The position numbers and the translations under genes are program-made. 64,000 nucleotides of DNA from Escherichia coli. Its GTDB lineage: Bacteria > Pseudomonadota > Gammaproteobacteria > Enterobacterales > Enterobacteriaceae. The DNA is taken from the NCBI RefSeq assembly GCF_029227855.1, contig NZ_CP074356.1, one strand, 5' to 3'. A model generated the notes under the pieces. The model was not told the DNA's origin. It was given only the letters and a program-made list of their open reading frames with translations, and did not search any database. Below, one piece after another: positions 500 through 33,021 of the stretch (position 1 is its first letter; every line of letters starts with the position of its first letter).

Positions 500-775
500 A
501 TGTCGATGTACACAACCGCCCAGCTGCTGGCGGCAAATGAGCAGAAATTTAAGTTTGATCCGCTGTTTCTGCGTCTCTTTTTCCGTGAGAGCTATCCCTT
601 CACCACGGAGAAAGTCTATCTCTCACAAATTCCGGGGCTGGTAAACATGGCGCTGTACGTTTCGCCGATTGTTTCCGGTGAGGTTATCCGCTCCCGTGGC
701 GGCTCCACCTCTGAATTTACGCCGGGATATGTCAAGCCGAAGCACTTAGCATGGCTTTCTGAGGCTTTCGTGTAG
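500..775 (+). pseudogene. E: Major capsid protein gpE, 5' fragment (codons 1-82) running into island DNA
   Basis: MSMYTTAQLLAANEQKFKFDPLFL...SEFTPGYVKPKH matches lambda gpE residues 1-82. After base 745 the frame reads LAWLSEAFV and stops at 773-775. The rest of E resumes at 11872. Confidence 0.93.
735..744 (+). repeat. Left copy of the 10-bp direct repeat AGCCGAAGCA (attL core)
   Basis: Identical 10-mer at 11864-11873. Both copies lie on the E codons for K-P-K-H. Confidence 0.8.
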
Positions 776-872
776 CTGCTGGTTTTTACACTTAATCTTT
801 TGATAATAAAGAATAAGTTTATCTGGCGCTTTCACTGAATTTTCCTCGTTATCTGTGTGTTGCAATCATCTC

Positions 873-893
873 TGTATTGCAGCTTGTATTGCT
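873..893 (+). repeat. Tandem TGTATTGC motif (TGTATTGCAGCTTGTATTGCT), candidate arm-type Int binding site, left arm
   Basis: A near-identical 21-mer (TGTATTGCAGCATGTATTGCT) lies in the same orientation at 11768-11788. A degenerate third copy, TGTGTTGCAA, lies at 857-866. Confidence 0.5.
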
Positions 894-907
894 TTTTGGG
901 GCTAAAA

Positions 908-2143
908 ATGGCTGGCGAGAACAAACTGAGCGACAAAGCGCTTAAAGGATATCTGGGGAAACCCAGAGAAAAGCAGATCACCATTGCTGATGGAAAGGGG
1001 CTTTCTATTCGTGTGAGTACTAAAGGGGCTGTGAGCTTTGTTTTCTTCTACAGGTTAGCAGGTGGCCGGGCTGCTCCGGTCTGGCTAACGTTGGGTAAAT
1101 ATCCTGATATGTCACTCAAACAGGCAAGGGAAAAGCGCGACGAGTGCCGTGGTTGGTTGGCTGACAAACGTGATCCGCGTATCCAGATTAAGATTCAGGC
1201 TGAAGAACGCTTAAAGCCGGTCACAGTGGAGGATGCACTAAATTACTGGTATGAAAATTACTGTAAGGTGCGTCGTAAAACTCATGCTGTAACGCTTGGC
1301 AGATTTCGAAAGCATATCTTTCCCTATATCGGTCATTTGCCCGTAAATGACACTCACCTATATGAATAGCTGGACTGTTTTGACCGAATTAAACGTAATG
1401 CACCAGTTATGGCGGCGTATGTTTTTTCTGACACTAAATTAGCTCTTCGTTTTTGTCGGGTACGCCAGTACGCGACGTGTGATGCTTTAAAGGATTTGCG
1501 CATGAGTGATGTGGGGCAGATTGCAGGTAAGCGGGATCGGGTTCTGGATGAGGTCGAACTCGGCCAGCTCTGGAAGGCAATTTTTGTCGAGCCTGATTTA
1601 AAACTAATGTCTGAATACACGCGAAAAATGTTTGTGCTTTGTACAGTATTTGGATGTCGAATGAGTGAAGCCCGATTATCAGAATGGAGCGAATGGGATC
1701 TCGAAAGTTGGGTTTGGACTGTGCCAAAAGATCACTCAAAAACTGGTGTTGAAATCGTCAGACCAGTACCTGAAATTCTACGACAGTGGGTAACGGATGT
1801 TCACGAAGAGACAAAACATACTGGTTATGTGCTGGGAAGTCTGCGAATTAGAGAAAGCGTAAGCAAGATTGGGGGGAAAATCGGTAAACGTTTGGGCCAT
1901 GAAAAACAATGGTCACTACACGACCTTAGAAGAACGCTATCTACTCATCTAAGTGATCTCGGTGTTGAATTTTATGTAGTAGAACAACTGTTAGGCCATG
2001 CGCTACCTGGCGTGGCAGGTGTTTACAACCGGAGTAAGTTTATGGCTAAAAAACTGGATGCTCTGGAACTCTGGACTACATATCTCAATAGCATCGCAGC
2101 TGCTGATTCAAAAGTGACAATCCTCAAACAAAAGGCTGGTTAG
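908..2143 (+). pseudogene. int: P4-family tyrosine integrase interrupted by one in-frame amber codon
   Basis: ORFs 857-1369 and 1409-2143 are in the same frame, separated only by TAG at 1367-1369 (context LYE*LDCFDRI; TGG/Trp would fit). The C-terminal part has HDLRRT, LLGH and GVYNRS catalytic-type motifs. The ATG at 908 gives MAGENKLSDKALK. Confidence 0.85.
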
Positions 2144-2144
2144 C

Positions 2145-2375
2145 ATGAAAAAAATGGCAATTGTTGATAAAAAGGGTCTGGAGTACATTCCTAACATTGA
2201 CCGAATGATCCGTGAGAAAGAATGTCGGGAGCTAACTACTCTTGCGAACAGCACACGCTGGAAGCTGGAGAAGGAAGGAAAATTTCCTAAGCGGATCAAG
2301 ATTGGTTCCACTGCTGTTGCATATCGTCTTTCAGAAGTGCAGGCATGGATTCGAGGTGAGTGGGAAACAACTTAA
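2145..2375 (+). CDS. alpA: AlpA-family HTH regulator/excisionase-like protein
   Basis: 76 aa. IREKECRELTTLANSTRWKLEKEGKFPKRIKIGSTAVAYRLSEVQAWI fits the AlpA pattern (G-FP-P-K-G ... W-x-x-EV-x-W). The ATG lies 1 nt after the int stop. Confidence 0.8.
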   Translation: MKKMAIVDKKGLEYIPNIDRMIREKECRELTTLANSTRWKLEKEGKFPKRIKIGSTAVAYRLSEVQAWIRGEWETT

Positions 2376-2382
2376 CTATTAG

Positions 2383-3213
2383 GTGGGCATTGTGGCTATA
2401 TTTCATTATACAGATCTTTTTGGTTTGAAAGGTATATTAGACTCTAATTCTTTATGGGCTACAAACATATATTTCTTAAATGATAAAGAGGAGTCTAACC
2501 ATGGATGTGAATGCTTTCGAAATACAATTAAAATAGTTGATGACAATATCATTCCAAAAGATAAGAAAACTATTTTGCTCAAGTCTCTTGACATGTATGA
2601 GAAAGGGAGGTTACAAAAAGAAAAAGGGATTGATAAACATGTTTATAGCATCTCTTTTTGTAAGGAAAACGATAAGTTAAGTCAGTGGAGAGGTTACGGA
2701 AATAAACAGGGTGTTTGCATTGAGTTTGATGCGGATGAACTTGTGAGCTTTTCTCAAAATATTTATTTAAATTGTGTTGCACATGATGTTATATATTCAA
2801 ATAATAACGATATTACTAAGATGAGTAAGGAGTTGGGAGAGTTTTTTTCTTGTAATGGTATTAATATTAAAGAAATGAATGATCATTTTGTAACAATGGT
2901 CTCTACGTATCAATTTATATCTAAATACATCCCATTTTTTAAACATCCTAGTTTTATCGAAGAGAATGAATTTAGATTGGTATTTACTCCGTGGATGCAA
3001 ATGCCAGATGTGCACTTCAGAATAAATAATAATGGGATCATCCCTTATATCATCATTGATAATAAAGATAATAGAAAGTTACCAATTAAAAGCATTACAA
3101 TTGGCCCGACAAACGATTATGATTTCATTGAGGCTGGTATAAAAATGTTCTTGGATTCAAGAGGATTTAGTTCTGTGGAAATTAAATCCTCATCAATTCC
3201 ATTCAGGGGGTAA
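2383..3213 (+). CDS. DUF2971-like protein (AT-rich cargo)
   Basis: 276 aa with a GTG start. Motifs FHYTD...GIL, FLNDKEE, SISFC...DKLSQWRGYG..GVCIEF and KHPSFIEENEFR resemble the DUF2971 signature. The gene is markedly AT-rich compared with its neighbours. Confidence 0.6.
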   Translation: MGIVAIFHYTDLFGLKGILDSNSLWATNIYFLNDKEESNHGCECFRNTIKIVDDNIIPKDKKTILLKSLDMYEKGRLQKEKGIDKHVYSISFCKENDKLSQWRGYGNKQGVCIEFDADELVSFSQNIYLNCVAHDVIYSNNNDITKMSKELGEFFSCNGINIKEMNDHFVTMVSTYQFISKYIPFFKHPSFIEENEFRLVFTPWMQMPDVHFRINNNGIIPYIIIDNKDNRKLPIKSITIGPTNDYDFIEAGIKMFLDSRGFSSVEIKSSSIPFRG

Positions 3214-3258
3214 GGATTAACACTTTTAATCTATGATATTATAAAAATGGTGGATAAA

Positions 3259-3278
3259 GGCGACCAGAATTGGTCGCC
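3259..3278. terminator. Hairpin between the convergent cargo genes
   Basis: GGCGACCA (3259-3266) pairs with TGGTCGCC (3271-3278). Confidence 0.4.
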
Positions 3279-3344
3279 AATGTGAGTATATAGTTAGCCT
3301 TAATCAGAATACGAGGTTATCGCCTGATAGGCAATGTGAACAGT

Positions 3345-3701
3345 TCAATATTTAGGTGGTTCAACAAGAGCGTTTATCATTGCTCTCAAATTATCGCGAA
3401 CACTTATCCAAGTCTGTTCTGCTCGTTCTAACTCATCAGTGTACAACTTTAATGTTTTATCTATGCCATATGTGGCTATTAAATTTATAGCTTCTTGTAA
3501 TTTTTCAGGATTATTCCTTCTTGGGGGAGTGAATATACCACGGATTTTTCCGGTAATTAAAGCTTTACGGTGTCTACATAGAATACCTTTACTTCCTGCT
3601 GGACAATTACAAGTCATGATTAGCGAGCCAGAATCGTTTGATACAGTGACTATGTATACATCCAAACTACTGCTACTTGTTGCGAAGAATTCGTATTTCA
3701 T
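3345..3701 (-). CDS. Small SWIM-type zinc-finger protein
   Basis: 118 aa. CNCPAGSKGILCRHRKAL fits the CxC...CxH SWIM motif. Convergent with the DUF2971-like gene. Confidence 0.6.
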   Translation of the reverse strand: MKYEFFATSSSSLDVYIVTVSNDSGSLIMTCNCPAGSKGILCRHRKALITGKIRGIFTPPRRNNPEKLQEAINLIATYGIDKTLKLYTDELERAEQTWISVRDNLRAMINALVEPPKY

Positions 3702-3728
3702 GTGTTAGCTCCTTGACTTCAATTATTC

Positions 3729-3920
3729 TTATCCTTTTGGTTCAATACCGCGCCGTAGCAGCTCTTTGCGCCCTAATTCTTTAAGCCAGTTGGCTAGGCT
3801 TATGCCGTCGCTCTGCGCTTCTTTGTCGAATTGCTCTTTTAGCTCTGGAGAAATTCGCATTCTGAATTGTGGAGATTGCCCATCACCCTTAGGACTTTTA
3901 TCGCGTTTGATCGTTGACAA
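3729..3920 (-). CDS. Arc/Mnt-like ribbon-helix-helix repressor candidate
   Basis: SPQFRMRISPELKEQFDKEAQSDGISLANWLKE resembles the Arc N-terminus (PQFNLRWPREVLDLV...). I prefer the TTG start at 3920, which is preceded by AGGTGG. The ATG at 4043 in the ORF track would add a low-complexity extension that overlaps the divergent leader. Confidence 0.55.
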   Translation of the reverse strand: MSTIKRDKSPKGDGQSPQFRMRISPELKEQFDKEAQSDGISLANWLKELGRKELLRRGIEPKG

Positions 3921-3965
3921 GTGACCACCTATTGAATTAGCCTTTTCATTGTTAGGTGACCACCT
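3921..3965. promoter_or_regulatory. Two direct copies of GTGACCACCT, candidate operators in the divergent control region
   Basis: Exact 10-mers at 3921-3930 and 3956-3965. The second copy lies within the palindrome AGGTGACCACCT. The first abuts the repressor start. Confidence 0.4.
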
Positions 3966-3991
3966 TAACACGGGGGCACTTAAAAAAGCAA

Positions 3992-4022
3992 AGCCCGAAG
4001 GTGCTGGGAACACCAACGGGCT
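3992..4022 (+). ncRNA. Structured hairpin in the leader of the early operon (possible C4/CI-like immunity RNA element)
   Basis: AGCCCG-AA-GGTG-CTGGGAA-CACC-AA-CGGGCT forms a two-tier stem with a symmetric AA/AA internal loop. It lies about 40 nt upstream of an icd-like gene, the position of c4 in P1 immI. Confidence 0.3.
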
Positions 4023-4059
4023 TCTAACCACCAACGATAGCAACAGTATCGAGGTAGCT

Positions 4060-4263
4060 ATGAGAAATCATACCACACACCCGCAAGGGCGGGACCCGCA
4101 CAACCTGAATAAATACATCTGGCGTTTTATCGCCTTGAGTACGGCACAACCGCGCATGATTACCATCGAGGCCATCAGCGAACAGGAAGCCCGCCAGCAA
4201 TCCCCAACTGGCTGCGTGATGGTATTCGCCGCCCGTATTCGTCAGGAGGTGTGCCGTGCTTAA
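4060..4263 (+). CDS. Icd-like (cell division inhibitor-like) small protein
   Basis: 67 aa. KYIWRFIALSTAQPRMITIEAISEQEARQQSP...FAARIRQEV matches my memory of Icd-like proteins from P4-type satellites. GAGGT lies 5 nt upstream of the ATG at 4060. Confidence 0.55.
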   Translation: MRNHTTHPQGRDPHNLNKYIWRFIALSTAQPRMITIEAISEQEARQQSPTGCVMVFAARIRQEVCRA

Positions 4264-4441
4264 AACCTTCCGTGTATTTGCCCGAGCTGTTAACCCACTG
4301 GGCCACACAATTGGTATCACTCAGAACGTGAAGGCTGTTAATGTTCAGACGGCTATTGCTGCGGTGAGAAGCGAATCATCAGAATATGGCTTATCACAAG
4401 TCATTATTTCAGCAGTGTATGAATTAAAAGAGGTGCATTAA
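4256..4441 (+). CDS. Hypothetical protein
   Basis: 61 aa with a GTG start overlapping the upstream stop. Part of a tightly packed same-strand operon. Confidence 0.45.
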   Translation: MLKTFRVFARAVNPLGHTIGITQNVKAVNVQTAIAAVRSESSEYGLSQVIISAVYELKEVH

Positions 4442-4632
4442 TGCAGGAAATCACATTACACGAAGCCGCTGAACGTGCGCACCAGACAGAAATTATTTGC
4501 CGCCTTCTTGAGGTATACCCGAACAAAATTACAGATGCTGATATATCCGCGCTGGCGAGCCTACTGGCGCGCCTTTCGGGAAGTGTCGCTAGTTTCCTGA
4601 TTGAGGAAGAAAGTAAGCTGGTGGGGGATTAA
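4441..4632 (+). CDS. Hypothetical protein
   Basis: 63 aa. TAATG overlap with the upstream gene suggests translational coupling. Confidence 0.5.
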   Translation: MQEITLHEAAERAHQTEIICRLLEVYPNKITDADISALASLLARLSGSVASFLIEEESKLVGD

Positions 4633-4854
4633 ATGAATACAGAACGGGAAGTCTTTTTTAAATTGTTAGCATGTGCAGAAAGTTCATTAACTTTAAATAA
4701 TTCAGCAAAAGCAATATTAAATATGTGGCTTGATTGCATAAATGACAATGAAGATGCAAATATTGCTTATGGCCTGTTGTCACTTATTGATGAATCAGCA
4801 GAAAAACTCAATGACGCAATAAATAGTGCCCTGCTATCAAATAAGTCGAGTTAA
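4633..4854 (+). CDS. Hypothetical protein (AT-rich)
   Basis: 73 aa. The ATG directly follows the upstream TAA. Confidence 0.5.
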   Translation: MNTEREVFFKLLACAESSLTLNNSAKAILNMWLDCINDNEDANIAYGLLSLIDESAEKLNDAINSALLSNKSS

Positions 4855-4871
4855 GTCGAGGAATAAATAAT

Positions 4872-5171
4872 ATGGAAATGAAAAATTCTGGCTTTATTGC
4901 CAGCGGCCCCGCTCGGCCTGAATTTATGAACGGCGATATTTACCGCGATAAATACGGCGGCACGGTAACGATTAAAGGCGTGGCAGAACGGCGCATCACT
5001 TACCGCCGTGAGGGGTATAGCTATGACTGCGTGATGCCTGTTTATCAGTTCCGGCGTGATTTTTCCCTGGTATATGCCGCACCCCGCAGTAAGCCCATCA
5101 GCAGGGAAAAAGCGCGGGGAAACATCCAGAAAATGAAAAGCATGATTAACGCATTCAGGGGCAAAAAATGA
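4872..5171 (+). CDS. Hypothetical protein
   Basis: 99 aa. ATGA overlap with the primase-helicase gene. Confidence 0.55.
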   Translation: MEMKNSGFIASGPARPEFMNGDIYRDKYGGTVTIKGVAERRITYRREGYSYDCVMPVYQFRRDFSLVYAAPRSKPISREKARGNIQKMKSMINAFRGKK

Positions 5172-6919
5172 AACTGGCACCGAACTTAAAAAAACAGCCA
5201 CGCGACAGACTGACAGAGGTAATCATCTTTGCAGGTAGTGATGCGTGGAGCCATGCGAAAGAGTGGCGGGAATGGGCGGGTAAACATATTGCCGCCGACG
5301 ATGTGCCGCCTGTCGTGCTGGCTGATGAGCAACTGAAAAATATCACCGATTACCGGATCATTGATGAAGATCGTCAGTGTGTGCGTGTTTACCGCGCAGG
5401 ACATATCACAGAGCACAGCATGACGCAGATTGTTACGTTACTGGCTGTGGCTGGAGTGAAGACCGTACACGAATACGCGGGGATTACTGACACCAGCCCA
5501 GTGGATTTATCCGAGCAGTTGCCGCGACTCAAAGAGGAATGCGAGCGTGGGGAAAGTCTGGTGCTTAATCTTCCGACGAAGCAAAAGGCGCAACTTTCAC
5601 AGATGGCAGACAGTGAACGTGCACAACTACTTGCCGATCGCTTTGATGGTGTGTGTGTTCATGCAGAAAGTGAAATCGTCCACGTATGGCGCGGCGGGGT
5701 ATGGTGTCCGGTCAGCACAATGGAGCTGAGCCGCGAAATGGTGGCGATCTATTCAGAGCACAGGGCCACGTTCAGCAAACGTGTAATCAATAACGCCGTG
5801 GAAGCGTTAAAAGTTATTGCCGACCCCATGGGGGAGCCGTCCGGTGATTTGCTACCGTTCACTAATGGTGTGCTTAACCTGAAAACGGGGGAATTTTCTC
5901 CGCACTCGCCGGAGCACTGGAGCACCACGCACAATGGCATTGAGTACACGCCACCAGTAGCAGGGGAAAACATCCGCGATAATGCGCCAAATTTCCATAA
6001 ATGGCTTGAACATGCTGCAAGAAAAGACCCGCGCAAGATGATGCGTATATGTGCCGCGTTATACATGATTATGGCGAACCGCTACGACTGGCAGATGTTC
6101 ATTGAGGCCACCGGAGACGGGGGAAGCGGTAAGAGTACATTTACCCATATTGCCACCCTGCTTGCTGGCAAACAGAACACCGTAAGCGCGGAGATGACAT
6201 CACTCGATGATGCAGGAGGGCGCGCGCAGGTTGTCGGGAGTCGTCTTATCGTCCTTGCCGATCAGCCGAAATATACGGGGGAAGGCACGGGCATCAAGAA
6301 AATCACGGGAGGCGATCCCGTTGAAATTAACCCGAAATATGAGAAGCGATTCACGACGATAATAAGGGCGGTGGTACTGGCAACCAATAACGACCCGATG
6401 ATCTTTACCGAACGGGCCGGAGGTGTGTCACGCCGTCGGGTGATTTTCCGGTTCGACAACATTGTAAGGGAGGACGAAAAAGACAAGGAATTACCGGAAA
6501 AGATAGCGGCAGAAATCCCCGTAATTATCCGCCGCTTGCTGGCTAATTTTGCTGACCCTGAAAAGGCACGGGCTTTATTACTGGAACAGCGTGACGGTGA
6601 TGAAGCTCTGGCAATAAAGCAGCAAACGGATCCGGTTGTTGAGCTTTGCGCGGCGCTGGAGTTTCTGGAGGAAGCTCGTGGGCTAATGATGGGCGGTGGT
6701 GGTGACACCGTGAAGTACACGACCAGAAACAGCCTTTACCGTGTCTATATGGCCTTCATGGCATACACAGGAAAGGGGAAATGTTTGAGCGTGAATGAGT
6801 TCGGAAAGGCTATGAGGTCAGCGGCGAAAGTTTACGGATATGAATATATTACGCGAAAAGTTAAGGGAGTCACGCAGACCAACGCAACGACTACTGATGA
6901 TTGCGATGCGTTTTTATAA
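5168..6919 (+). CDS. P4/D5-family primase-helicase (replication initiator, pri-rep type)
   Basis: 583 aa. FHKWLEHAARKD...YDWQMFIEATGDGGSGKSTF fits the phage/plasmid primase P4-family C-terminal NTPase with a Walker A motif. An iteron field lies immediately downstream. Confidence 0.8.
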   Translation: MKLAPNLKKQPRDRLTEVIIFAGSDAWSHAKEWREWAGKHIAADDVPPVVLADEQLKNITDYRIIDEDRQCVRVYRAGHITEHSMTQIVTLLAVAGVKTVHEYAGITDTSPVDLSEQLPRLKEECERGESLVLNLPTKQKAQLSQMADSERAQLLADRFDGVCVHAESEIVHVWRGGVWCPVSTMELSREMVAIYSEHRATFSKRVINNAVEALKVIADPMGEPSGDLLPFTNGVLNLKTGEFSPHSPEHWSTTHNGIEYTPPVAGENIRDNAPNFHKWLEHAARKDPRKMMRICAALYMIMANRYDWQMFIEATGDGGSGKSTFTHIATLLAGKQNTVSAEMTSLDDAGGRAQVVGSRLIVLADQPKYTGEGTGIKKITGGDPVEINPKYEKRFTTIIRAVVLATNNDPMIFTERAGGVSRRRVIFRFDNIVREDEKDKELPEKIAAEIPVIIRRLLANFADPEKARALLLEQRDGDEALAIKQQTDPVVELCAALEFLEEARGLMMGGGGDTVKYTTRNSLYRVYMAFMAYTGKGKCLSVNEFGKAMRSAAKVYGYEYITRKVKGVTQTNATTTDDCDAFL

Positions 6920-6932
6920 AAAATGGCAATGG

Positions 6933-7161
6933 TTATCTACCTTGTCTACCTGACTGAAAGAAAATACTTTTATTTCAATGTATTAATGCAGGTAGATAAC
7001 TATTTTTCACTGTCTACCTGTTATCTACCTTATCTACCCATTTTTGTAGACAGGTAAGGAGACGGGTAGAGATGAGGTAGACAGCTATTTGGGGCTGTCT
7101 ACCTCCCTGAAACCCGCGCCATTACTGGCCTGATAACTAATCAGGTAGACAAGGTAGACAA
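6933..7161. repeat. Iteron field, candidate satellite origin of replication
   Basis: At least 10 copies of GGTAGA(C/T)A or its complement, in both orientations: 6933-6941, 6942-6950, 6991-6999, 7011-7018, 7021-7029, 7030-7038, 7077-7085, 7095-7103, 7144-7152, 7153-7161. AT-rich spacers lie around 6955-6990. Confidence 0.75.
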
Positions 7162-7208
7162 GGTGGTGGTGCACAAAAAACTTTTTAAACGAGGGGGTAA
7201 AAATAAAA

Positions 7209-7466
7209 ATGCACACTTCAGGAAAACTGAACAAACATATAAAGCCACATTACCGCGCCCTTGATATGGCTGAACACTGGCTAAGGGTGGCGATTAAGGC
7301 AATAGACCGCAACGCCGGGGAAGGATACGCGAAAGCACATCCCGAACTGATAAGCGCATTCATGACAACGGCGGCTGCAAACTTTGCCACGCTGACCGAA
7401 CGGGAGATTGCTGAAGCGGAGGAAGTGACAACAATCAATATTAAGTCCGGAGAGCAGGCAGCATGA
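7209..7466 (+). CDS. Hypothetical protein
   Basis: 85 aa. ATGA overlap with the SSB gene. Confidence 0.5.
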   Translation: MHTSGKLNKHIKPHYRALDMAEHWLRVAIKAIDRNAGEGYAKAHPELISAFMTTAAANFATLTEREIAEAEEVTTINIKSGEQAA

Positions 7467-7912
7467 CGGCGCAAATATCAGTTTACGGGCGGTTGGTGGA
7501 CGACCCGCAGACAAAACAGACCAGCAAGGGCACCCCCATGACGCTGGCGCGTATGGCGGTATCACTGCCCTGCAGTCAGTCGGATGACGGTCTGGCGACG
7601 TTGTGGTTATCTGTCCTGGCGTTTGGCAGACAAGCCGACGCGCTGGCAAAGCATCACAAAGGCGAACTCCTGAGCGTGGCGGGTAACATGCAGATGAGCC
7701 AGTGGACTGGACAGAACGGCGAAACGCGGCAGGGCTGGCAGGTTATCGCAGACAGCGTAATCAGTGCGCGATCGGTGCGACCGGGCGGCAAAAAAGGCCA
7801 ACAGGGGCAGGCTACTGACGCACTGAACAGAGCAAAACAACAGGCAGATCAGCAAGGAAGCCAGCCACCAGAGGGAGATAATGAGCAATGGGGAGATGAT
7901 ATCCCGTTTTAA
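7463..7912 (+). CDS. ssb: Single-stranded DNA-binding protein (SSB family)
   Basis: 149 aa. OB-fold-type N-terminus (VYGRLVDDPQTKQT...WLSVLAFGRQAD...KGELLSVAGNMQMSQW), a Gln/Gly-rich linker, and the canonical acidic tip DDIPF. Confidence 0.8.
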   Translation: MTAQISVYGRLVDDPQTKQTSKGTPMTLARMAVSLPCSQSDDGLATLWLSVLAFGRQADALAKHHKGELLSVAGNMQMSQWTGQNGETRQGWQVIADSVISARSVRPGGKKGQQGQATDALNRAKQQADQQGSQPPEGDNEQWGDDIPF

Positions 7913-7923
7913 ATATTGCCAAT

Positions 7924-7954
7924 AAAAAAAGCCGGAAAAAATAAATTTTCCGGC
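7924..7954 (-). terminator. Hairpin with its T-run only on the minus strand, between the replication and capsid modules
   Basis: GCCGGAAAA (7931-7939) pairs with TTTTCCGGC (7946-7954). A7 at 7924-7930 gives a U-tract only for leftward transcription. Confidence 0.4.
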
Positions 7955-8128
7955 ATGCTACATAAATCCCGACCAAAGGGAGTGAAGATATTAACACTAA
8001 TTGTCCGCACTGAAGTTGTCACACCAAAACTTTATACAACATTGCACTCGGTTGCATGTGTTCGCATGACAAATATCGGTGATAGCATATATCCACAATT
8101 ATTTTTAATGAATGCAAAGAGGATGCGT

Positions 8129-9169
8129 ATGGTTGATTTATATTCGCCTACTCAGCTTGTACAGGTAGTTAATGCTGTAGATGTACAAAAACAACTAAAT
8201 GCGTTGTTTACCAGTTTGTTTTTTACTCGCTCGGTAATGTTTGAATCGCGCGATATTATTCTTGATACAATCGACGATCCAAATATCCCAATTGCAGCGT
8301 TTTGTTCTCCTATGGTGGGTAGTAAAGTTTCACGTGACGAAGGGTACGAATCAAAAACAATTCGTCCAGGCTATATGAAGCCGAAAAGCAGCATTGATCC
8401 AAATAAGTTAGCTGTGCGCCCTGCTGGTGTGTCACCTGAGCAATACAATGCTTTTGGGGCGCGTAATATTAAAGTTAAACAGGCGATTGTAAATCAGGCT
8501 AAAGCTATTCGTGCACGTATTGAATGGCTTGCTGTTCAGGCAATCACAACGGGGAAAAATATCATTGAGGGCGATGGTATTGAACGTTATGAGCTGGACT
8601 GGAATATAAAACCACAAAATATCATCACTCAGTCTGGCGGTACTGAGTGGTCAGGTAAGGATAAAGAAACTTTTGATCCAAATGATGATATTGAGAGCTA
8701 CGCAGAATTTAGTGAGGGCGTCACTAATATCATCATTATGGGTGGTAATGTATGGAAGAAATACCGTTCATTCAGAGCGATAAAAGAGGCTTTGGATACC
8801 CGTCGTGGTTCTAATTCCGAACTGGAAACGGCCCTTAAAGACCTTGGTGATTCGGTGAGTTTTAAAGGGTATATGGGCGATGTTGCGATTGTTGTTTACA
8901 GCGGGCGTTATACCGACGAGGACGGAACAGAAAAACATTTCCTTGATCCTGATTTGATGGTGCTTGGCAATACGGCTCTTCAGGGGATTGTCGCCTATGG
9001 CGGTATTCAGGATCCGGAGCTAATCCGAATGGGGCTGACTAAAGCCGAACTTGCACCGAAAAACTATATTGTGCCTGGTGATCCGGCTATTGAATATGTG
9101 CAGACACATTCAGCACCACAGCCAATACCGGCCCGCATCAATCGTTTTGTTACCGTTCGCATTGGCTAA
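8129..9169 (+). CDS. Satellite-encoded major capsid protein, gpE (lambda E) family
   Basis: 346 aa. The C-terminal half aligns by eye with lambda gpE: ITQSGGTEWSGKDKETFDPNDDIESYA, LDTRRGSNSELETALKDLG, YMGDVAIVVYSGRY, MVLGNTA, PGDPA. The N-terminal half is much more diverged. The ATG at 8129 has AAGAGGA 6 nt upstream. The longer ORF from 7916 has no homology support. Confidence 0.88.
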   Translation: MVDLYSPTQLVQVVNAVDVQKQLNALFTSLFFTRSVMFESRDIILDTIDDPNIPIAAFCSPMVGSKVSRDEGYESKTIRPGYMKPKSSIDPNKLAVRPAGVSPEQYNAFGARNIKVKQAIVNQAKAIRARIEWLAVQAITTGKNIIEGDGIERYELDWNIKPQNIITQSGGTEWSGKDKETFDPNDDIESYAEFSEGVTNIIIMGGNVWKKYRSFRAIKEALDTRRGSNSELETALKDLGDSVSFKGYMGDVAIVVYSGRYTDEDGTEKHFLDPDLMVLGNTALQGIVAYGGIQDPELIRMGLTKAELAPKNYIVPGDPAIEYVQTHSAPQPIPARINRFVTVRIG

Positions 9170-9178
9170 GGGGGAGCA

Positions 9179-9520
9179 ATGGCTACTCATTACACTGAAC
9201 TCATGGCTGGCACTGAAGCACTGGTGACTACGCTGGGGATATTTTCAGCTAATAAAGGGGTAATTCCTGCATTTACGCCACTGATGCAGGAAGATGCAAC
9301 AGGTGCACTGGTGGTATGGGATGGTTCGAGCGTAGGTAAAGCGGTTTATGTTTCCGCTGTACAAATCGACACCGCGAAAAAAACACAGGCTCAGGTCTAT
9401 AAGACAGGTGTCTTAAATGTTGATGCTCTGAACTGGCCTGAGTCTGTTAAAGAACTGTCAGTAAAGGTTGCAGCGTTTGTTGGCTCAGGTATTTCTGTTC
9501 AGCCGCTGGCTCGTGTGTAA
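9179..9520 (+). CDS. Satellite-encoded head decoration protein, gpD family
   Basis: 113 aa. Shares TPLM, LVxWDG, YKxG, LxWPE and AFxGxGIS with lambda gpD in the same order. Confidence 0.75.
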   Translation: MATHYTELMAGTEALVTTLGIFSANKGVIPAFTPLMQEDATGALVVWDGSSVGKAVYVSAVQIDTAKKTQAQVYKTGVLNVDALNWPESVKELSVKVAAFVGSGISVQPLARV

Positions 9521-9531
9521 AGGGGGATACA

Positions 9532-9915
9532 ATGCAGAATGATTACAATGACCTTAAGCCAATTGCCGAAATGATGTACCCGAATCAAGCTGTAGAGGAA
9601 TTAAAAGCTATCGCTGACAAAATGTGTTTAAGCGAGCGCCTTGTTGATATGAATCAGGTGATGGAAATTACAACCCTGAGTCGTCGTACACTGCTAAACC
9701 TTGAGGCTAGTGGAGAGTTCCCGGAGCGTGTGCAGGTTACGGAAGGGCGTAAGGCCTGGTATTTAAGTGAAGTGATCGACTGGATAAATAATATTCCTCG
9801 CGCTTCTGAATATTGCCGCGTACCTGTCCCAAAAAAGCCAGATGCGGCGCTATGCCTCAAGATTGAGCGTGTACGCCGCAATGCACGGGATGGTCGCTAT
9901 AAGCTGATTGGTTGA
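9532..9915 (+). CDS. AlpA/MerR-like winged-HTH protein immediately upstream of cos
   Basis: 127 aa. MNQVMEITTLSRRTLLNLEASGEFPERVQVTEGRKAWYLSEVIDWI fits the AlpA pattern. It is the last gene before the cos site. Confidence 0.65.
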   Translation: MQNDYNDLKPIAEMMYPNQAVEELKAIADKMCLSERLVDMNQVMEITTLSRRTLLNLEASGEFPERVQVTEGRKAWYLSEVIDWINNIPRASEYCRVPVPKKPDAALCLKIERVRRNARDGRYKLIG

Positions 9916-9922
9916 TGAAATT

Positions 9923-9948
9923 AGGACCCGCTCTGGCTGGCGGGTCCT
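9923..9948 (+). terminator. Hairpin after the capsid module
   Basis: AGGACCCGC (9923-9931) pairs with GCGGGTCCT (9940-9948), followed by TTCC (a weak T-run). Confidence 0.45.
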
Positions 9949-9954
9949 TTCCGG

Positions 9955-10140
9955 CGATCCAGAACGTTACGGGGCGTCAGGCGCGCAGTTTTTCGCTATT
10001 TGTGAAAATTTTCCTGTTTAAGGCGTTTCCGTTCTTCTTCGCCGTAACTTAATGTTTTTATTAAAAACACCCCCTAAAAAGAAAGGAAACGACAGGTGCT
10101 AAAAACAGGCTTTTTGGCCTCTGTCGTTTCCTTTCTCTGG
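9955..10140 (+). other. cos: Lambda-type cos site (cosN plus cosB R3-I1-R2-R1) with no adjacent terminase genes
   Basis: CGTTACG|GGGCGTCAGGCG|CGCAGTTTTTCGCTATTTGTGAAAATTTTCCTGTTTAAGGCGTTTCCGTTCTTCTTCG...GAAAGGAAACGACAGGTGCT...GGCTTTTTGGCCTCTGTCGTTTCCTTTCTCTG is collinear with my memory of the first ~180 bp of lambda. The R-site repeats CGTTTCC lie at about 10023-10034, 10081-10095 (inverted) and 10121-10135. The predicted 12-nt end at 9972-9983 matches lambda GGGCGGCGACCT at 7 of 12 positions. Confidence 0.85.
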
Positions 10141-10479
10141 TTTTGTTGCCATCCGTCGCGGTCTATCACCAGAAAAAATCTTATCCCTGAGTTGAATCAG
10201 GCCCTATTCAGAAGCGGCCAATAACGCGCCGCTAGCTTCACTTCATAGTTATGGCCTACTTCTGCGCCATTGCAATTGCTTTATGCGCCTTGATGGTGGA
10301 ATATAGAGCAAGCAGTTTGCGAATAACAAAGTTTCATATGTTTTTTGCTGTGTGGCTAGACAACTTTACAGCAGAGTTTTGTGTCAGTTCTTTATGTGTG
10401 CAAGCAAGCTTGAGGGGGAATTACTTCTGGCTGTATCTTTGCTTAAGAACAGCAATAATTTAATCATAAGGAAATGTAT

Positions 10480-10506
10480 ATAAGCCTGATTAAATTTCAG
10501 GCTTAT
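10480..10506 (-). terminator. Hairpin just downstream of the TIR gene
   Basis: ATAAGCCTGA (10480-10489) pairs with TCAGGCTTAT (10497-10506), 8 nt past the stop of the minus-strand gene. Confidence 0.5.
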
Positions 10507-10513
10507 TGAAATG

Positions 10514-11656
10514 TTAACTCCTTATTAGAGAGTAAATTCCATCCTCTTTAAGGAAGTCTATTACTTCAAAGAATGAGATAAAGAATTCCCAAGAACCAAA
10601 AGCATATGCATGAATTTCGTAAGGTGCAAAATGGAATCTAAATCCATCACTATTTATTGTGAACGAGTCTAAGTTACTATCCATGATACCCGTTGCAAAC
10701 GTACTAATGTCGTCCTCACTTGGTTTTTCACCAGTTTTCTCCCAAAATTCACGAGCTGATTCAGAGATTATTTTTTGTTTTATCTTATTAATCGCTTCTT
10801 GCTCTTTCCCTTCGGTAAATACATCCCATAAACTAAATTTGTATGCGTAGTCATCCTTGGTTATTACGAAATTACTAGTTTCAAAATGACTGTTAGGGTG
10901 TGCTGCTCCCGCACCATACCAATGTACGGAATGAAGGATGCTCATGACATTTTCGTTACAGTATGAGATGTTATAACTTTCATTATAGGAACTAGTGTAA
11001 GTGTGTTTATATTCTTCATCCCAATATGGTGTTCCTGGCCATAGTGATGTGCGTTCAGAAAAAATATGTAAAGCCGCTTTTCCTGAAAAGTAATCACTAA
11101 TGAGTTTTGCTGATTTCGGTAATGTATGGCTTTCAATTCTTGGATATGCTATTTCAATTTCATGCCCTGGGATCTTGTTATATTCTTCCTTGAAAACCTC
11201 GCTGCTAAAGTTAAATGGCCCATAAGTGATACCTTGAGATATTTCAAGTTTTTGTTGCGATGCTGCTAATCTTAAAGATCTAGATAAAATGTCCCAACCA
11301 TCATTTCTCTTAAAATCAATGAATTGGAGCTTGCTTGATATGTAGGCGGGTACTTCGCAATCATCAATAAGTAATGGTATCACGAACACATCATCTGGTT
11401 TGTAATACTTTAGTTTATCAATGGCGTCATTTATTTCGCGGCGAATATAACCATTTTTCTGAGTGCTCACTTTGCTAAGGATAAGGATTATCAAGTTTGA
11501 ATTAGCGAAGTTTTTTTGGATTTCATAATCCCAGTTTACGCCAGCGGGTATATCTTTTACATCCATCCAAGGGGAATATCCTCCACTTTTTAGCCTTTCA
11601 TAGATTTCTTCAGTTATCGTTTCATCTTCTTTTGCATGAGCAAGAAAAATTTTCAT
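10514..11656 (-). CDS. TIR-domain protein fused to a DUF4163/DUF3298 (RsiV-like) C-terminal domain
   Basis: 380 aa with no signal peptide or TM segment visible. The N-terminus (MKIFLAHAKEDE...GYSPWMDVKDIPAGVNWDYEI...SNLIILILSKVSTQKNGYIRREINDAI) fits the TIR_2 pattern, including the conserved Glu position. The C-terminus has IEIAYPRI... and HWYGAGAAHPNSHFETSNF...FSLWDVF, resembling the DUF4163 and DUF3298 motifs. AT-rich. Confidence 0.7.
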   Translation of the reverse strand: MKIFLAHAKEDETITEEIYERLKSGGYSPWMDVKDIPAGVNWDYEIQKNFANSNLIILILSKVSTQKNGYIRREINDAIDKLKYYKPDDVFVIPLLIDDCEVPAYISSKLQFIDFKRNDGWDILSRSLRLAASQQKLEISQGITYGPFNFSSEVFKEEYNKIPGHEIEIAYPRIESHTLPKSAKLISDYFSGKAALHIFSERTSLWPGTPYWDEEYKHTYTSSYNESYNISYCNENVMSILHSVHWYGAGAAHPNSHFETSNFVITKDDYAYKFSLWDVFTEGKEQEAINKIKQKIISESAREFWEKTGEKPSEDDISTFATGIMDSNLDSFTINSDGFRFHFAPYEIHAYAFGSWEFFISFFEVIDFLKEDGIYSLIRS

Positions 11657-11767
11657 TGAATATTCCTTTATAATTTAACTAATTAAGTGAAGGAGGCTTT
11701 ACTTGGCTGTGTTAGAAAAAATTCGGTTTGTTTTTTGTACGATGCCAAGAAGGCTTTTCCCTAACCA

Positions 11768-11788
11768 TGTATTGCAGCATGTATTGCT
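11768..11788 (+). repeat. Tandem TGTATTGC motif (TGTATTGCAGCATGTATTGCT), candidate arm-type Int site, right arm
   Basis: Matches 873-893 at 20 of 21 positions, in the same orientation. Confidence 0.5.
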
Positions 11789-11863
11789 ACGTAATTCTGC
11801 ACCCTCTCATTTATAAAATAAATCTCTGTTAAATCAAGTATCTTTTTTCTATTTGACTCATGT

Positions 11864-11873
11864 AGCCGAAGCA
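11864..11873 (+). repeat. Right copy of the 10-bp direct repeat AGCCGAAGCA (attR core)
   Basis: Identical to 735-744. Followed by TGAGGTGAATCCGCAG, the continuation of lambda E (H-E-V-N-P-Q). Confidence 0.8.
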
Positions 11874-12699
11874 TGAGGTGAATCCGCAGATGACCCTGCG
11901 TCGCCTGCCGGATGAAGATCCGCAGAATCTGGCGGACCCGGCTTACCGCCGCCGTCGCATCATTATGCAGAACATGCGTGACGAAGAGCTGGCCATTGCC
12001 CAGGTCGAAGAGATGCAGGCAGTTTCTGCCGTGCTTAAGGGCAAATACACCATGACCGGTGAAGCCTTCGATCCGGTTGAGGTGGATATGGGCCGCAGTG
12101 AGGCGAATAACATCACGCAGTCCGGCGGCACGGAGTGGAGCAAGCGTGACAAGTCCACGTATGACCCGACCGACGATATCGAAGCCTACGCGCTGAACGC
12201 CAGCGGAGTGGTGAATATCATCGTGTTTGATCCGAAAGGCTGGGCGCTGTTCCGTTCCTTCAAAGCCGTCAAGGAGAAGCTGGATACTCGTCGCGGCTCT
12301 CATTCCGAGCTGGAGACAGCGGTGAAAGACCTGGGCAAAGCGGTGTCCTACAAGGGGATGTATGGCGATGTGGCCATCGTCGTGTATTCCGGACAGTACG
12401 TGGAAAACGGCGTCAAAAAGAACTTCCTGCCGGACAACACGATGGTGCTGGGGAACACTCAGGCACGCGGTCTGCGCACCTATGGCTGCATTCAGGATGC
12501 GGACGCACAGCGCGAAGGCATTAACTCCTCTGCCCGTTACCCGAAAAACTGGGTGACCACCGGCGATCCGGCGCGTGAGTTCACCATGATTCAGTCAGCA
12601 CCGCTGATGCTGCTGGCTGACCCTGATGAGTTCGTGTCCGTACAACTGGCGCAATCGTGGCCCTTCGGGGCCATTTTCTCTCTGTGGAGGAGTCCATGA
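11872..12699 (+). pseudogene. E: Major capsid protein gpE, 3' fragment (codons 82-341), with loss of the normal stop
   Basis: HEVNPQMTLRRLPDEDPQNLADPAYRRRR...DPDEFVSVQLA matches lambda gpE 82-341. The expected TAA is CAA (12652-12654), so the frame runs 15 more codons (QSWPFGAIFSLWRSP) to TGA at 12697-12699. Confidence 0.93.
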
Positions 12700-28953: not shown

Positions 28954-29247
28954 ATGGATATAACACCTTTCCTTCATGCGCTTTGTGCTGTGGCTGCGCA
29001 GCTACTGATTGGTCTTTTTACCGGGAACTGGGCTTACGGGGCGATAGCCGGTTGTACGTTCTTCATTGCGCGTGAACACACCCAGGCAGAATATCGCTGG
29101 ATCGAAATGTTCGGGCATGGCAAGCGAATGAATATGCCGTGGTGGGGCGGTTTTGATCCACGCGCGTGGGATGTGGCAAGCCTGATGGATTTTGCTGTGC
29201 CGGTGGTGGCGTGTCTGCTGGTCTGGCTGTTGGTTAATCGTGGGTGA
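28954..29247 (+). CDS. Small predicted inner-membrane protein, function unknown
   Basis: About 97 aa with 2-3 hydrophobic segments ([45 protein letters not shown]). The start is ambiguous (28948 or 28954). Confidence 0.55.
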
Positions 29248-29257
29248 AAAAAGGTGG

Positions 29258-29386
29258 GCTGTATATGCAACGGAGGAAGAAACCACGTTGCTGGAAGCCT
29301 GGAAGAAGTATCGGGTGTTGCTGAACCGTGTTAATACAACAACTGCACCGGATATTGAATGGCCAACAGTACCCATTATCGAATAG
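29258..29386 (+). pseudogene. tfa: Tail fibre assembly protein (Tfa) C-terminal remnant
   Basis: [39 protein letters not shown] matches the conserved Tfa C-terminus. There is no matching N-terminal part or plausible start. Confidence 0.6.
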
Positions 29387-29459
29387 TGCATTACGAACTG
29401 CAGGATATTATATGGGATAATATTCTGCAGTTTATTGGGGCTGTATTTTAAAAAGGTGT

Positions 29460-30791
29460 TTATTTTGAGTGAATTATCACCTTGTTTTTTCCGGTTCTTT
29501 TGGCTTGATATAACGCTTTGTCGGCATTGACTAACATTTCAGATGGACTGAGATTATTCTCTTTTGAAGCAAAGCAACCAATACTGACAGTTATTTTCTC
29601 AGGTCCATGCGATAATAATTTTTCCGAGCATTGCTCTTCAATGTTTTTTCTGATTCGCTCTGCAATTGATAGCAAGAGTTTTTGAGTATTACCTTTAATG
29701 ATAATACCGAACTCCTCACCGCCTAAGCGCCCTAATATATCCTCTTTCCTGATGGATTTTTTTATTATTCTGGTAACCATTACTATGACTTGATCACCCA
29801 TATGATGCCCCCATTTGTCATTGATGCTTTTGAAACTGTCAATATCTAACATTATTACTGAGAAATCATGGTGTTTTGATATATTCTTCAATGAGTCAAT
29901 AAAGTATCTTCTATTGTATGTATTCGTTAGTGGATCATGAATTGCCATATGATTAGCATGATTTAATTTCCTGAAAACATAATACATGAGTGTTGAAATG
30001 ATATAAATCATTGATATCAATTCAAGAAATTTTGTCATGTACCATGCAGGATGGGATTTATCAATAAAATACAATAAAATTAGATTATTGCATACTGACA
30101 CTATACTAATAAGTATTATACACAACCATATTTTTGAGTAATTACGTATGCTGATGCATGAGCTGATAAGTAATACAAGCCAAAATACTGATATTATTTT
30201 GGTGTACACGATATTCCACGTCGACAAATGACGATTCAGCGAGTATTGTATAATATTAAGACTATATTTTATATGGTCACTGCTTAGATTTTTTGCTACA
30301 AACGGAGTAATAAAAAGAATTAATATTGACAAAACAACAATTATTATGTTTCTTTTATCTTCTAAAATACTTTTATTTTTAACATTGGTGGAATAAACAG
30401 CCAGAAAGATTATAGATATAAAGCTGAACTGACGGAATAGATAATATATTGCGATATCATTTGATTTCTGATAGATTGTAGATAAATCGTTACCTAACGG
30501 AGATAAAGAAATAATAGCCACTTCTAATAAATAATACGTGTTGCTCAAAAACGCGAATGAAAGAATTAAGAGATAACTTTGTCTCTGATTAGAAACATAG
30601 TAAAGCAATAGAAAAATAAAAATCATCAGGTTTATGAAAAAAAGCCCAATAATGAAAACACTATAACTTATTTGTGTTGTTTGTGTTATGTATATTCCAT
30701 TATTTTCATGCAGTAACAAAAATATAATAGAGATGCATGAAAATAAAAAGATGAAGATTTTTATTTTTATAGGTACCTGGTTGATAATCAT
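29460..30791 (-). CDS. Membrane-bound GGDEF diguanylate cyclase (AT-rich prophage-end cargo)
   Basis: 443 aa. About 8 TM segments, then HDPLTNTYNRRYF...DIDSFKSINDKWGHHMGDQV...GRLGGEEFGIII...ADKALYQAKRTGKNKV (intact GGEEF). Very AT-rich. Confidence 0.85.
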   Translation of the reverse strand: MIINQVPIKIKIFIFLFSCISIIFLLLHENNGIYITQTTQISYSVFIIGLFFINLMIFIFLLLYYVSNQRQSYLLILSFAFLSNTYYLLEVAIISLSPLGNDLSTIYQKSNDIAIYYLFRQFSFISIIFLAVYSTNVKNKSILEDKRNIIIVVLSILILFITPFVAKNLSSDHIKYSLNIIQYSLNRHLSTWNIVYTKIISVFWLVLLISSCISIRNYSKIWLCIILISIVSVCNNLILLYFIDKSHPAWYMTKFLELISMIYIISTLMYYVFRKLNHANHMAIHDPLTNTYNRRYFIDSLKNISKHHDFSVIMLDIDSFKSINDKWGHHMGDQVIVMVTRIIKKSIRKEDILGRLGGEEFGIIIKGNTQKLLLSIAERIRKNIEEQCSEKLLSHGPEKITVSIGCFASKENNLSPSEMLVNADKALYQAKRTGKNKVIIHSK

Positions 30792-31050
30792 GTACGCACC
30801 TGAGAATGATATATATATAATATGTATCGCTACAAATAACGATAATTTCTTACTGGTGATAGTATACTATTATTCTGGTTAATCGCTGTCAAATTGATGA
30901 TTTTGGTTAGTATTGCAATAGCGAAGGGTTTGATCCGGTAAGACTGGCTAGGCAAGGCTATACCAAAAAATCAGTGTAGGTTCAGAAAACGATGCACCAT
31001 ACAATCATCAATAATTTCAAATTGTCCATTGTGCATAAATCATAAAGAAA

Positions 31051-31085
31051 ACCGCAGCACGTCGTATGCAAGAACGTGCTGCGGT
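31051..31085 (-). terminator. 12-bp perfect-stem hairpin with a T-rich tail on the minus strand
   Basis: ACCGCAGCACGT (31051-31062) pairs with ACGTGCTGCGGT (31074-31085). On the minus strand it is followed by TTTCTTTATGAT. No obvious upstream gene. Confidence 0.35.
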
Positions 31086-31383
31086 TGGCTGGTGAGCTTT
31101 CGATAGTGCGAGTATTGAATGATTTCCAGACGTTACCGATTTTATATAACTGCAGTGGAATTATTCAACACACAGGCAAAACGGAATAAGCTGAGAAAAA
31201 AGCGTGCTTTCCCAATCTGGGGCAAATCACGTCTGAATGACACCTGAAAACAGGTGGTAGCCTCAAGAAGGCTTGGAATATTCTTCTTTAATGTTATGTA
31301 ATTCATTGATTTTTCTTGTACGATTTTAAGACATTTATTCCAAGAAAAATTTTTAACTCTTTGATTTTTCGACTCTGTATCAT

Positions 31384-31445
31384 CGGTCTCGAAAACCGGA
31401 GTAGGGGCAACTCTACCGGGGGTTCAAATCCCCCTCTCTCCGCCA
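31384..31445 (+). tRNA. serU: 3' 62-nt fragment of tRNA-Ser (serU-like), probable prophage attR core and not a functional tRNA
   Basis: CGGTCTCGAAAACCGGAGTAGGGGCAACTCTACCGGGGGTTCAAATCCCCCTCTCTCCGCCA covers the anticodon-stem 3' side, the long variable arm, the T-arm and the acceptor 3' end with CCA. The 5' half (GGAGAGATGCCGGAGCGG...) is absent. Confidence 0.8.
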
Positions 31446-31993: not shown

Positions 31994-32027
31994 TAAAAAA
32001 GACACGTCTCAAGCATGAGCGTGTCTG
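31994..32027 (-). terminator. Rho-independent terminator downstream of zinT
   Basis: AGACACG (32000-32006) pairs with CGTGTCT (32020-32026). A6 at 31995-32000 gives a U-tract on the minus strand. Confidence 0.65.
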
Positions 32028-32114
32028 AGTTTGTCTTATTTATTTGTCTTGGTAAATTATTGTCGTTACTACCAGGCACTGTTCTGTTAAATAATTGAAG
32101 TCAGCGCAAAAAAA

Positions 32115-32990: not shown

Positions 32991-33021
32991 GGATAACGCG
33001 TACTTTGTCGGCAATATGAAG

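Follow-up and report, generated by a model that had tools for sequence, protein, structure and literature searches.

The int gene of a satellite lying within the capsid gene of a lambda-like prophage was found to carry an amber codon in place of a tryptophan codon in the window, i.e. the whole stretch of 64,000 nucleotides of Escherichia coli DNA that was analysed. We consider it highly probable that this is a real, clone-confined nonsense allele of an 11capE-type HE-PICI (helper-embedded PICI), that the satellite is unable to excise itself, and that the composite prophage is in recent decay. The course of events that we propose would have started, in one clone, with a G-to-A transition at position 1368, changing TGG into TAG (Trp154 to amber) in a satellite located at its normal site, codon 82/83 of the helper's lambda-like E. 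Translation would then end after residue 153, so that the product would retain the arm-binding domain, together with half of the core-binding domain, and lack the whole catalytic domain. Excision requires a tyrosine recombinase acting on attL and attR with AlpA; the cis sites and alpA are intact. The satellite would be unable to excise by its own means, the helper E would stay split, and the composite prophage, with two other private lesions in the helper head genes, would be in ordinary, recent decay.

The interruption lies in the context TAT GAA TAG CTG GAC (letters 1361-1375 of the window). Translation of int (908-2143, + strand) gave 411 codons, interrupted internally only by the stop at codon 154 (...NDTHLYE*LDCFDRI...), and in the program-made ORF list the ORFs 857..1369 and 1409..2143 share one frame. 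Both results confirm what the initial annotation had reported, namely 5' and 3' ORFs in the same frame, split by a sole TAG at 1367-1369, and a product ending at residue 153. The features of the gene are the following:

908..2143, + strand: int, a P4/CP4-like tyrosine recombinase gene of 411 codons, now a pseudogene via W154amber (translation and Pfam)
1367..1369, + strand: amber codon, TAG in place of TGG (Trp154), midway through the core-binding domain
908..1366, + strand: predicted N-terminal product of 153 aa, comprising the arm-type DNA-binding domain plus roughly half of the core-binding domain, without catalytic domain
1409..2143, + strand: downstream in-frame ORF of 244 aa (residues 168-411), encoding the catalytic residues

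When the TGG-repaired Int was submitted to Pfam analysis, Arm-DNA-bind_3 was matched at residues 7-93, Phage_int_SAM_3 / Phage_int_M at 106-198 (113-198 for the Phage_int_M match alone) and Phage_integrase at 232-377. The catalytic residues, located by alignment, are R251, K278, H338, R341, H364 and Y373. None of them varies among homologs of 28-99% identity, and all are encoded 3' of codon 154, in agreement with the earlier remark that the catalytic motifs are intact. A search of solved structures returned arm-domain matches and a weak XerC-like match only, which was enough for locating the catalytic residues. The gene belongs to the Phage_integrase PF00589 family, and the catalytic R-K-H-R-H/W-Y set, though encoded, is absent from the translated product; gene callers annotate the 153-aa product on Logan contigs. 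The predicted Int product would not be an active tyrosine recombinase. Since the truncated Int lacks the catalytic domain, excision is predicted to be lost, and the enzymology of tyrosine recombinases makes the loss of self-excision by the satellite a strong inference. A scan for promoters and terminators around int revealed no more sites than shuffled sequence.

The satellite was compared with the published HE-PICIs and with the HE-PICI of VCSW7 (NZ_CP082357.1), the complete E. coli genome that best matches the int region. Its features are:

745..11873, + strand: satellite of about 11.1 kb, splitting a lambda-like major capsid gene E (Pfam)
735..744, + strand: attL core, the 10-bp block AGCCGAAGCA, located in helper gene E at the left junction
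11864..11873, + strand: attR core, the identical 10-bp block AGCCGAAGCA, at the right junction
873..893, + strand: doubled motif TGTATTGCAGCTTGTATTGCT (repeat family), a possible arm-type site about 133 bp from the core centre, just 5' of the int start codon
11768..11788, + strand: second copy of the doubled motif, in the same orientation, at about 81 bp from the core centre
2145..2375, + strand: alpA, intact, an AlpA-family excisionase/regulator partner of Int (Pfam Phage_AlpA, 3e-15; 100% identity to VCSW7)
8129..9520, + strand: satellite capsid gene (8129-9169; 346 aa) and decoration gene (113 aa), both intact (Pfam Phage_cap_E, 2e-41; HDPD, 4.5e-15)
9532-9915: AlpA-like HTH, differing in one residue from that of VCSW7
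10514-11656, - strand: cargo gene with a TIR domain, without VCSW7 counterpart, which matches defence-system models

The gene order in the satellite is int, alpA, DUF2971, SWIM (- strand), icd-like and small ORFs, DUF4222, D5_N primase and SSB, followed by the satellite's own major capsid gene, the decoration protein gene, the AlpA-like HTH, a cos-like stretch and the TIR cargo (- strand). HE-PICIs were described by Tommasini, Mageeney and Williams (NAR Genom Bioinform 2023; PMC10111431), the founder being Eco567.11capE from E. coli NRG857c. The 11capE site is E:Phage_cap_E:80, with 201 instances; a 10-bp identity block is present at attL and attR, and the doubled TGTATTGC motif (published form tgTGTATTGCantgTGTATTGCa) is located 81 +/- 2 bp upstream and 132 +/- 2 bp downstream of the attP centre (PMC10111431).

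Each of these features has its equivalent in the window. The island is flanked by the two parts of E (500-745 and 11866-12651), and beyond these, all on the + strand, by helper D upstream and FI, FII, Z, U, V, G, T, H and so on downstream. Its integrase shares 99% protein identity with the NRG857c Int, a degree of identity that puts it in the same subclade. The 10-bp block is found at both junctions, and recombination between the two copies would rebuild E: the joined flanks restore GTC AAG CCG AAG CAT GAG GTG (VKPKHEV), the sequence of intact E. The doubled TGTATTGC motif is present twice in the same orientation, at about 81 and 133 bp from the core centre. The zones follow the PICI order, with Int-AlpA, a dynamic zone (DUF2971/SWIM), a replication zone (primase) and a late zone with Phage_cap_E and HDPD. 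Judged by its sequence, then, the element is an HE-PICI of the 11capE type, i.e. of a known kind. As to the junctions, the restored E junction (attB) is expected to be GTCAAGCCGAAGCATGAGGTG and attP CATGTAGCCGAAGCACTTAGCATGG; in the excision junction sequences, attB would contain GGGATATGTCAAGCCGAAGCATGAGGTGAATCCGCAG and attP TTGACTCATGTAGCCGAAGCACTTAGCATGGCTTTC.

It should be noted that the initial annotation had regarded the loss of Int as locking the satellite in the capsid gene. However, E is the normal site of the family, and since copies with intact Int occupy the same site, the mutation does not account for the location in the capsid gene.

The island shows 99.68% identity to that of VCSW7 over 10,040 bp, with 31 base differences, only three of which change a protein (two in int, one in the HTH). 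The proteins shared with VCSW7 (through the HTH) are, Int excepted, all of full length, and all but the HTH, which differs in one residue, are 100% identical. Such a small number of protein changes among 31 differences indicates that purifying selection acted until recently and that the null allele is young. Int is the only lesion in the island, which in turn indicates that the null allele is recent, as had been surmised earlier.

The origin of the stop codon is clear from the comparison with orthologs. Among 5,426 complete E. coli genomes, the best match to positions 850-2200 was VCSW7 (99.8% identity), and over these 1,351 nt only three bases differ:

1368: A in the window, G in VCSW7; TAG in place of TGG (Trp154)
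1552: synonymous difference
1554: Val216 in the window, Ala in VCSW7

The VCSW7 ortholog (WP_000896722.1), which is annotated as a full protein of 411 aa, differs from the Int of the window in two residues, W154* and A216V. The proposal that the stop arose by a G-to-A change of TGG is therefore well founded: VCSW7 has TGG, and the orthologs encode Trp.

The TAG allele is rare. A 41-mer across the TAG, which seeds a megablast match only where the TAG is present, had no matches in the 5,426 complete E. coli genomes. In the same set, an 81-mer with the stop at its centre matched 175 genomes, none of them exactly, while its TGG-repaired version was exact in 159 of the 175 genomes with the gene. 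In addition, 95 other copies were inspected (26 metagenome contigs, chosen by carrying a 40-mer with either allele allowed, 68 IMG/VR loci, VCSW7 and NRG857c). Their protein identities range from 88 to 100%; all 95 have Trp at codon 154, and none has any stop in the gene. The 40-mer, with either allele, had no match among GTDB species-representative genomes.

A stop at codon 154 was thus present in none of the 175 genomes and in none of the 95 other copies, and a conserved stop, as expected for programmed readthrough or for a conserved split gene, was not found in either set, so that both are excluded. The alternative mentioned in the initial annotation, that orthologs universally carry the stop with a restart downstream, is ruled out by these results, because the orthologs encode Trp and have no stop. 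The stop is a mutation and not a design. Phage integrases that are more distant (28-51% identity) have Trp at this position in four cases, Tyr in one (Moraxella phage Mcat9 Int) and Phe in one (Stenotrophomonas phage S1 Int), which indicates that residue 154 is an aromatic position of the core-binding domain.

The extent to which the mutation abolishes excision depends on the fate of the UAG codon. In E. coli, termination at UAG depends on the context and is never complete, and the context found here, TAG C, is not the strongest. It is conceivable, though in our opinion improbable, that near-cognate tRNAs, or a suppressor tRNA of the strain or the helper, read through the codon, so that Int would retain a residual function and excision would be reduced and not abolished. 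Position 154 tolerates Tyr or Phe in the distant integrases, and a Tyr-inserting suppressor would probably give an active enzyme. Moreover, lambdoid prophages often have tRNA genes downstream of Q. In VCSW7, a tRNA-Asn and a tRNA-Thr gene are found there, and the corresponding region of the helper falls outside the 64-kb window. Within the 64-kb window, however, no tRNA gene was detected. Strong amber suppressors are rare in natural isolates, basal readthrough is normally a small fraction of termination, and Gln, the usual near-cognate insertion, may not be tolerated at a position where Trp is invariant in all the 95 close copies. If a little integrase suffices and UAG is somewhat leaky, rare excision is possible. 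A related integrase provided in trans by another HE-PICI would probably be functional, given that the att sites are intact. Recoding of the TAG as pyrrolysine or selenocysteine was rejected: E. coli is not known to have a pyrrolysine system, and selenocysteine uses UGA.

The preferred reading, namely loss of self-excision in a decaying composite, is also consistent with the state of the helper, whose E gene is present in two parts:

500..745, + strand: N-terminal part of helper E, 82 codons (tblastn with the VCSW7 E fragment, 100% identity)
11866..12699, + strand: C-terminal part of helper E, with the stop TAA changed to CAA at 12652-12654, which would add 16 residues up to a TGA at 12697-12699

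The matching E fragment is annotated as a partial major capsid protein in VCSW7 and NRG857c. The C-terminal part differs from IAI39 in a single base (12652, C vs T). The resulting stop-loss occurs in none of the 2,925 genomes matching its 81-mer, and was found in the same SRA runs as the TAG (see below). A second lesion, a 7-nt deletion in the portal gene B leaving 509 aa vs 533 aa, was observed in contigs reaching upstream of the window, where the gene lies, and was assigned to the genome of the window through their 100% identity to the window in the overlap; it is present in none of 2,507 genomes. These clone-private lesions in head genes fit decay of the composite prophage. The closest relative of the helper in the complete-genome set is 96.9% identical over the tail region, and is too distant for a comparison lesion by lesion or of their order and tempo.

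The initial annotation had also stated that E stays split and that the prophage cannot make a capsid. The first part holds, as a consequence that may be inferred from the loss of excision, while the second is overstated, because the island contains intact and co-oriented homologs of E and D. The satellite capsid protein is about 45% identical to helper E and the decoration protein about 37% identical to helper D, both being 100% identical to the VCSW7 proteins. It has been suggested that the captured capsid copy may serve as a backup (PMC10111431). Whichever capsid protein is made, the helper would probably be non-transmissible while the satellite stays in, because the whole composite exceeds the lambda packaging limit (PMC10111431).

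Ordinary, recent decay of the composite prophage is the most likely evolutionary reading of these data. The suggestion that the host may have domesticated both elements is unsupported, as the two further lesions in helper head genes fit plain decay equally well. Domestication by selection would mean that loss of Int was favoured, with the helper permanently disabled and the host keeping cargo such as the TIR-domain gene. The match of this gene to defence-system models speaks for it, as do the intactness of the other island genes (all but one of the shared proteins being identical to those of the mobile relative), the two helper lesions, and the persistence of the allele long enough for clone mates to acquire private SNPs. 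However, a single clone with few isolates is also what a neutral recent mutation would produce, and intact neighbours simply mean that the event is recent. The allele is absent from the 175 genomes and the 95 copies, and there is neither recurrence nor any parallel int-null allele among these roughly 270 copies. Selected domestication is therefore quite doubtful. With a small chance of being right, one may imagine that loss of int acts as a one-step, irreversible padlock on two nested elements, whereby the satellite could not leave, the capsid gene of the helper could never be rebuilt and the composite would be too large for a head of lambda size, so that the helper would decay (E stop-loss, portal truncation) and the host would keep the defence cargo. 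If this were true, and if int-null alleles were selected, the island would exemplify in nature the domestication of a prophage by means of a satellite.

The reading preferred here, of decay following a real nonsense mutation, presupposes that base 1368 is correct. A look-up of the exact 153-aa and 244-aa products identified five independently assembled SRA runs (Logan contigs):

TAG-carrying Logan assemblies: SRR5866348, SRR24058701, SRR18105866, DRR063306, SRR10254033

All five run contigs carry the TAG and are 100% identical to the window across 1.6-7.7 kb. The SRR18105866 contig is common to one further sample. Of the seven contigs obtained with the 153-aa product, three (L007-L009) are TGG or undetermined copies whose partial product, cut by the contig end, happens to stop at residue 153, and these were discarded. 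The 244-aa product gave only two contigs, a number that is no measure of rarity, as gene callers elsewhere chose the start of a 213-aa product on identical DNA.

The same runs and NCBI GCA_017075055.1 also provided clone-mate contigs that overlap the window further downstream, with 1-4 SNPs in 8.5-20.8 kb, some of these SNPs being private to a single isolate. The private SNPs indicate that the clone mates are separate isolates which have inherited the TAG allele, and not one data set. Over the chromosomal flank, no complete E. coli genome is more than 99.0% identical to the window, and membership of the clone is visible solely through Logan and NCBI draft contigs. Because five independent run assemblies carry the TAG and the isolates differ by SNPs, the sequences exclude a one-off sequencing error, an option that had been left open by the initial annotation. 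The more general idea of a sequencing or assembly error, with G as the true base at 1368 and the integrase intact, could appeal to the absence of the TAG from all complete genomes and to a single-base substitution being the simplest type of error. Nevertheless, it is extremely improbable, considering that five separately sequenced and assembled runs have the TAG on DNA identical to the window, that private SNPs elsewhere keep these runs apart as data sets, and that base 1368 lies outside homopolymers and outside the GATC and CCWGG methylation (Dam/Dcm) motifs.

Two in-frame ATG codons follow the stop. The one at 1409 shows no Shine-Dalgarno pairing (+0.6 kcal/mol), whereas that at 1502 (M199) is preceded by AAGGA (-5.4 kcal/mol), a pairing energy resembling that of real genes nearby, and could yield a 213-aa fragment with the catalytic domain only. 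A two-part or restarted integrase, in which the 153-aa piece and a C-terminal piece from either ATG act jointly or apart, is hardly credible in spite of the preserved frame, the intact downstream ORF, the Shine-Dalgarno-like sequence and the 213-aa or 244-aa products predicted by gene callers, since the stop is in no ortholog and the arrangement is not conserved, ATG 1409 is without Shine-Dalgarno pairing, the break falls inside the core-binding domain with residues 154-167 or 154-198 missing, and catalytic-domain fragments of lambda Int lack arm-dependent site-specific recombination.

In itself, a pseudogene produced by a point mutation in a published family of mobile elements is a minor finding. 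Published work already covers the element, its site and att architecture, and its excision, and what is added here is a defective member with an ordinary type of mutation. No mention of an integrase-null HE-PICI was found in the literature searched. The clone nevertheless represents a natural integrase knockout, in which the satellite differs from a mobile relative essentially only by the int null, the att sites, alpA and the rest being intact. It is therefore suited to asking whether excision of the satellite needs its own Int, whether the captured capsid gene replaces the split helper E, and what becomes of a helper with a permanently interrupted late gene. As to the last question, the two private lesions in head genes suggest that such a helper decays.

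Among the closest known systems is Eco567.11capE of NRG857c, which resembles the satellite of the window in its site in gene E, the 10-bp block, the spacing of the TGTATTGC motifs and an Int that is 99% identical, as well as in the succession of int, alpA, variable zone, primase, SSB, capsid and decoration genes, AlpA-like HTH and cargo. NRG857c has an intact Int of 411 aa and its excision has been demonstrated, whereas the copy in the window is W154amber. After mitomycin C, the NRG857c satellite excises in 42-98% of excised composites (PMC10111431); this is the one experimental strain on which HE-PICI biology rests, and no virions could be recovered from it. The two elements also differ in their cargo (TIR-DUF3298 in the window vs HEPN and DUF262 in NRG857c), and the helper of the window appears to be located beside the dgc/zinT/msrPQ/hprRS/hchA region, while that of NRG857c is in icd. 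The HE-PICI of VCSW7 is alike at 99.68% over 10 kb with identical attL and attR, but has TGG at codon 154, an abortive-infection family protein as cargo, an E with the normal TAA and a portal protein of 533 aa.

Like the satellite, classical Gram-negative PICIs (e.g. EcCICFT073) and P4 use a P4/CP4-like integrase that has an arm-binding domain and is partnered by AlpA; they also share with it a D5_N-type primase, packaging of the cos type by a helper, and the capture of capsid genes. They differ in using chromosomal gene sites and in interacting with the helper in trans only, whereas the HE-PICI described here splits one of its helper's late genes. Decaying cryptic prophages and islands offer a further parallel, in that a point mutation in the recombinase immobilizes the element and further lesions are found nearby. 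In contrast to ordinary decayed islands, however, the immobile satellite would also keep an essential gene of a second element split, so that one mutation would disable two nested elements.

The capsid gene E of the helper prophage has CAA in place of its TAA stop codon at 12652-12654, and the next stop is found at 12697-12699. A restored E would still gain 16 C-terminal residues from the stop loss and would end at a new stop codon that overlaps the start codon of FI. Among the complete genomes matching the 81-mer that spans this site, none of 2,925 carried the CAA version, and the same SRA runs contained both this codon and the integrase TAG.

The helper portal gene B, whose site lies upstream of the left end of the window, was read from contigs of clone mates; the parts of these contigs that overlap the window match it at 100% identity. 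A 7-nt deletion was observed in L004 (3475-3555) and also in L005 and L006, shortening the product from 533 to 509 aa with the new end ...GLKPPA*. This deletion was present in 0 of 2,507 complete genomes.

Two positions carry a base unique to the window when compared with all four clone-mate contigs spanning them, namely A instead of G at 9926, directly after the HTH gene, and T instead of G at 15393, within tail gene G. Other isolates have private SNPs of their own (14212, 21548 and 21695), and therefore the clone has diversified.

The helper appears to adjoin the following region:

~29000-41000, chromosomal flank: GGDEF/MASE4 cyclase, zinT, msrQ, msrP, hprR, hprS, hchA and a 420-aa porin ORF

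The best identity of this flank among 5,426 complete E. coli genomes was 99.0%, and the source strain belongs to a lineage absent from complete genomes. In contrast to this apparent location, the helper of NRG857c, the strain of the founding 11capE satellite, sits in icd.

Within the satellite, iteron-like repeats directly 3' of the primase gene (6932-7104) comprise two copies of GTTATCTACCTT(G/A)TCTACC and two of a 30-nt palindromic unit (AGGTAGA...TCTACCT), with a spacing given as 85-88 bp, and probably represent a replication origin. A cos-like stretch at ~9945-10010 shows 82% identity over 73 nt to the helper cos region (L005:1172-1244), whereas the 12-nt cosN core is unlike in the two (GGGCGTCAGGCG in the satellite, GGGCGGCGACCT in the helper). 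A similar segment shared by satellite and helper is also found in the HE-PICI paper (Tommasini, Mageeney and Williams, 2023; PMC10111431). The satellite capsid gene reads as follows:

7916-9169, open frame of the capsid gene, with TTG 7916 lying 71 codons upstream of ATG 8129

In relatives, the annotated start is ATG 8129 (346 aa), and the 71-codon upstream stretch is probably just open frame.

The remaining satellite genes considered here are:

10090-11845, chiefly 10514-11656, minus strand, cargo end, 380-aa TIR + DUF3298 protein
2383-3213, plus strand, DUF2971 protein, variable zone after alpA
3345-3701, minus strand, SWIM zinc-finger protein, same zone

The 380-aa protein gave PADLOC matches to TIR-domain defence models, and the DUF2971 and SWIM proteins each gave weak PADLOC matches to candidate systems (PDC-S31, PDC-S62). 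The cargo end constitutes a swap-in module and looks like a defence hotspot of the 11capE-type satellite family. Where the window has TIR + DUF3298, the related satellite of strain VCSW7 encodes an abortive-infection family protein and that of NRG857c HEPN + DUF262; the variable zone of NRG857c likewise holds genes other than those for the DUF2971 and SWIM proteins.
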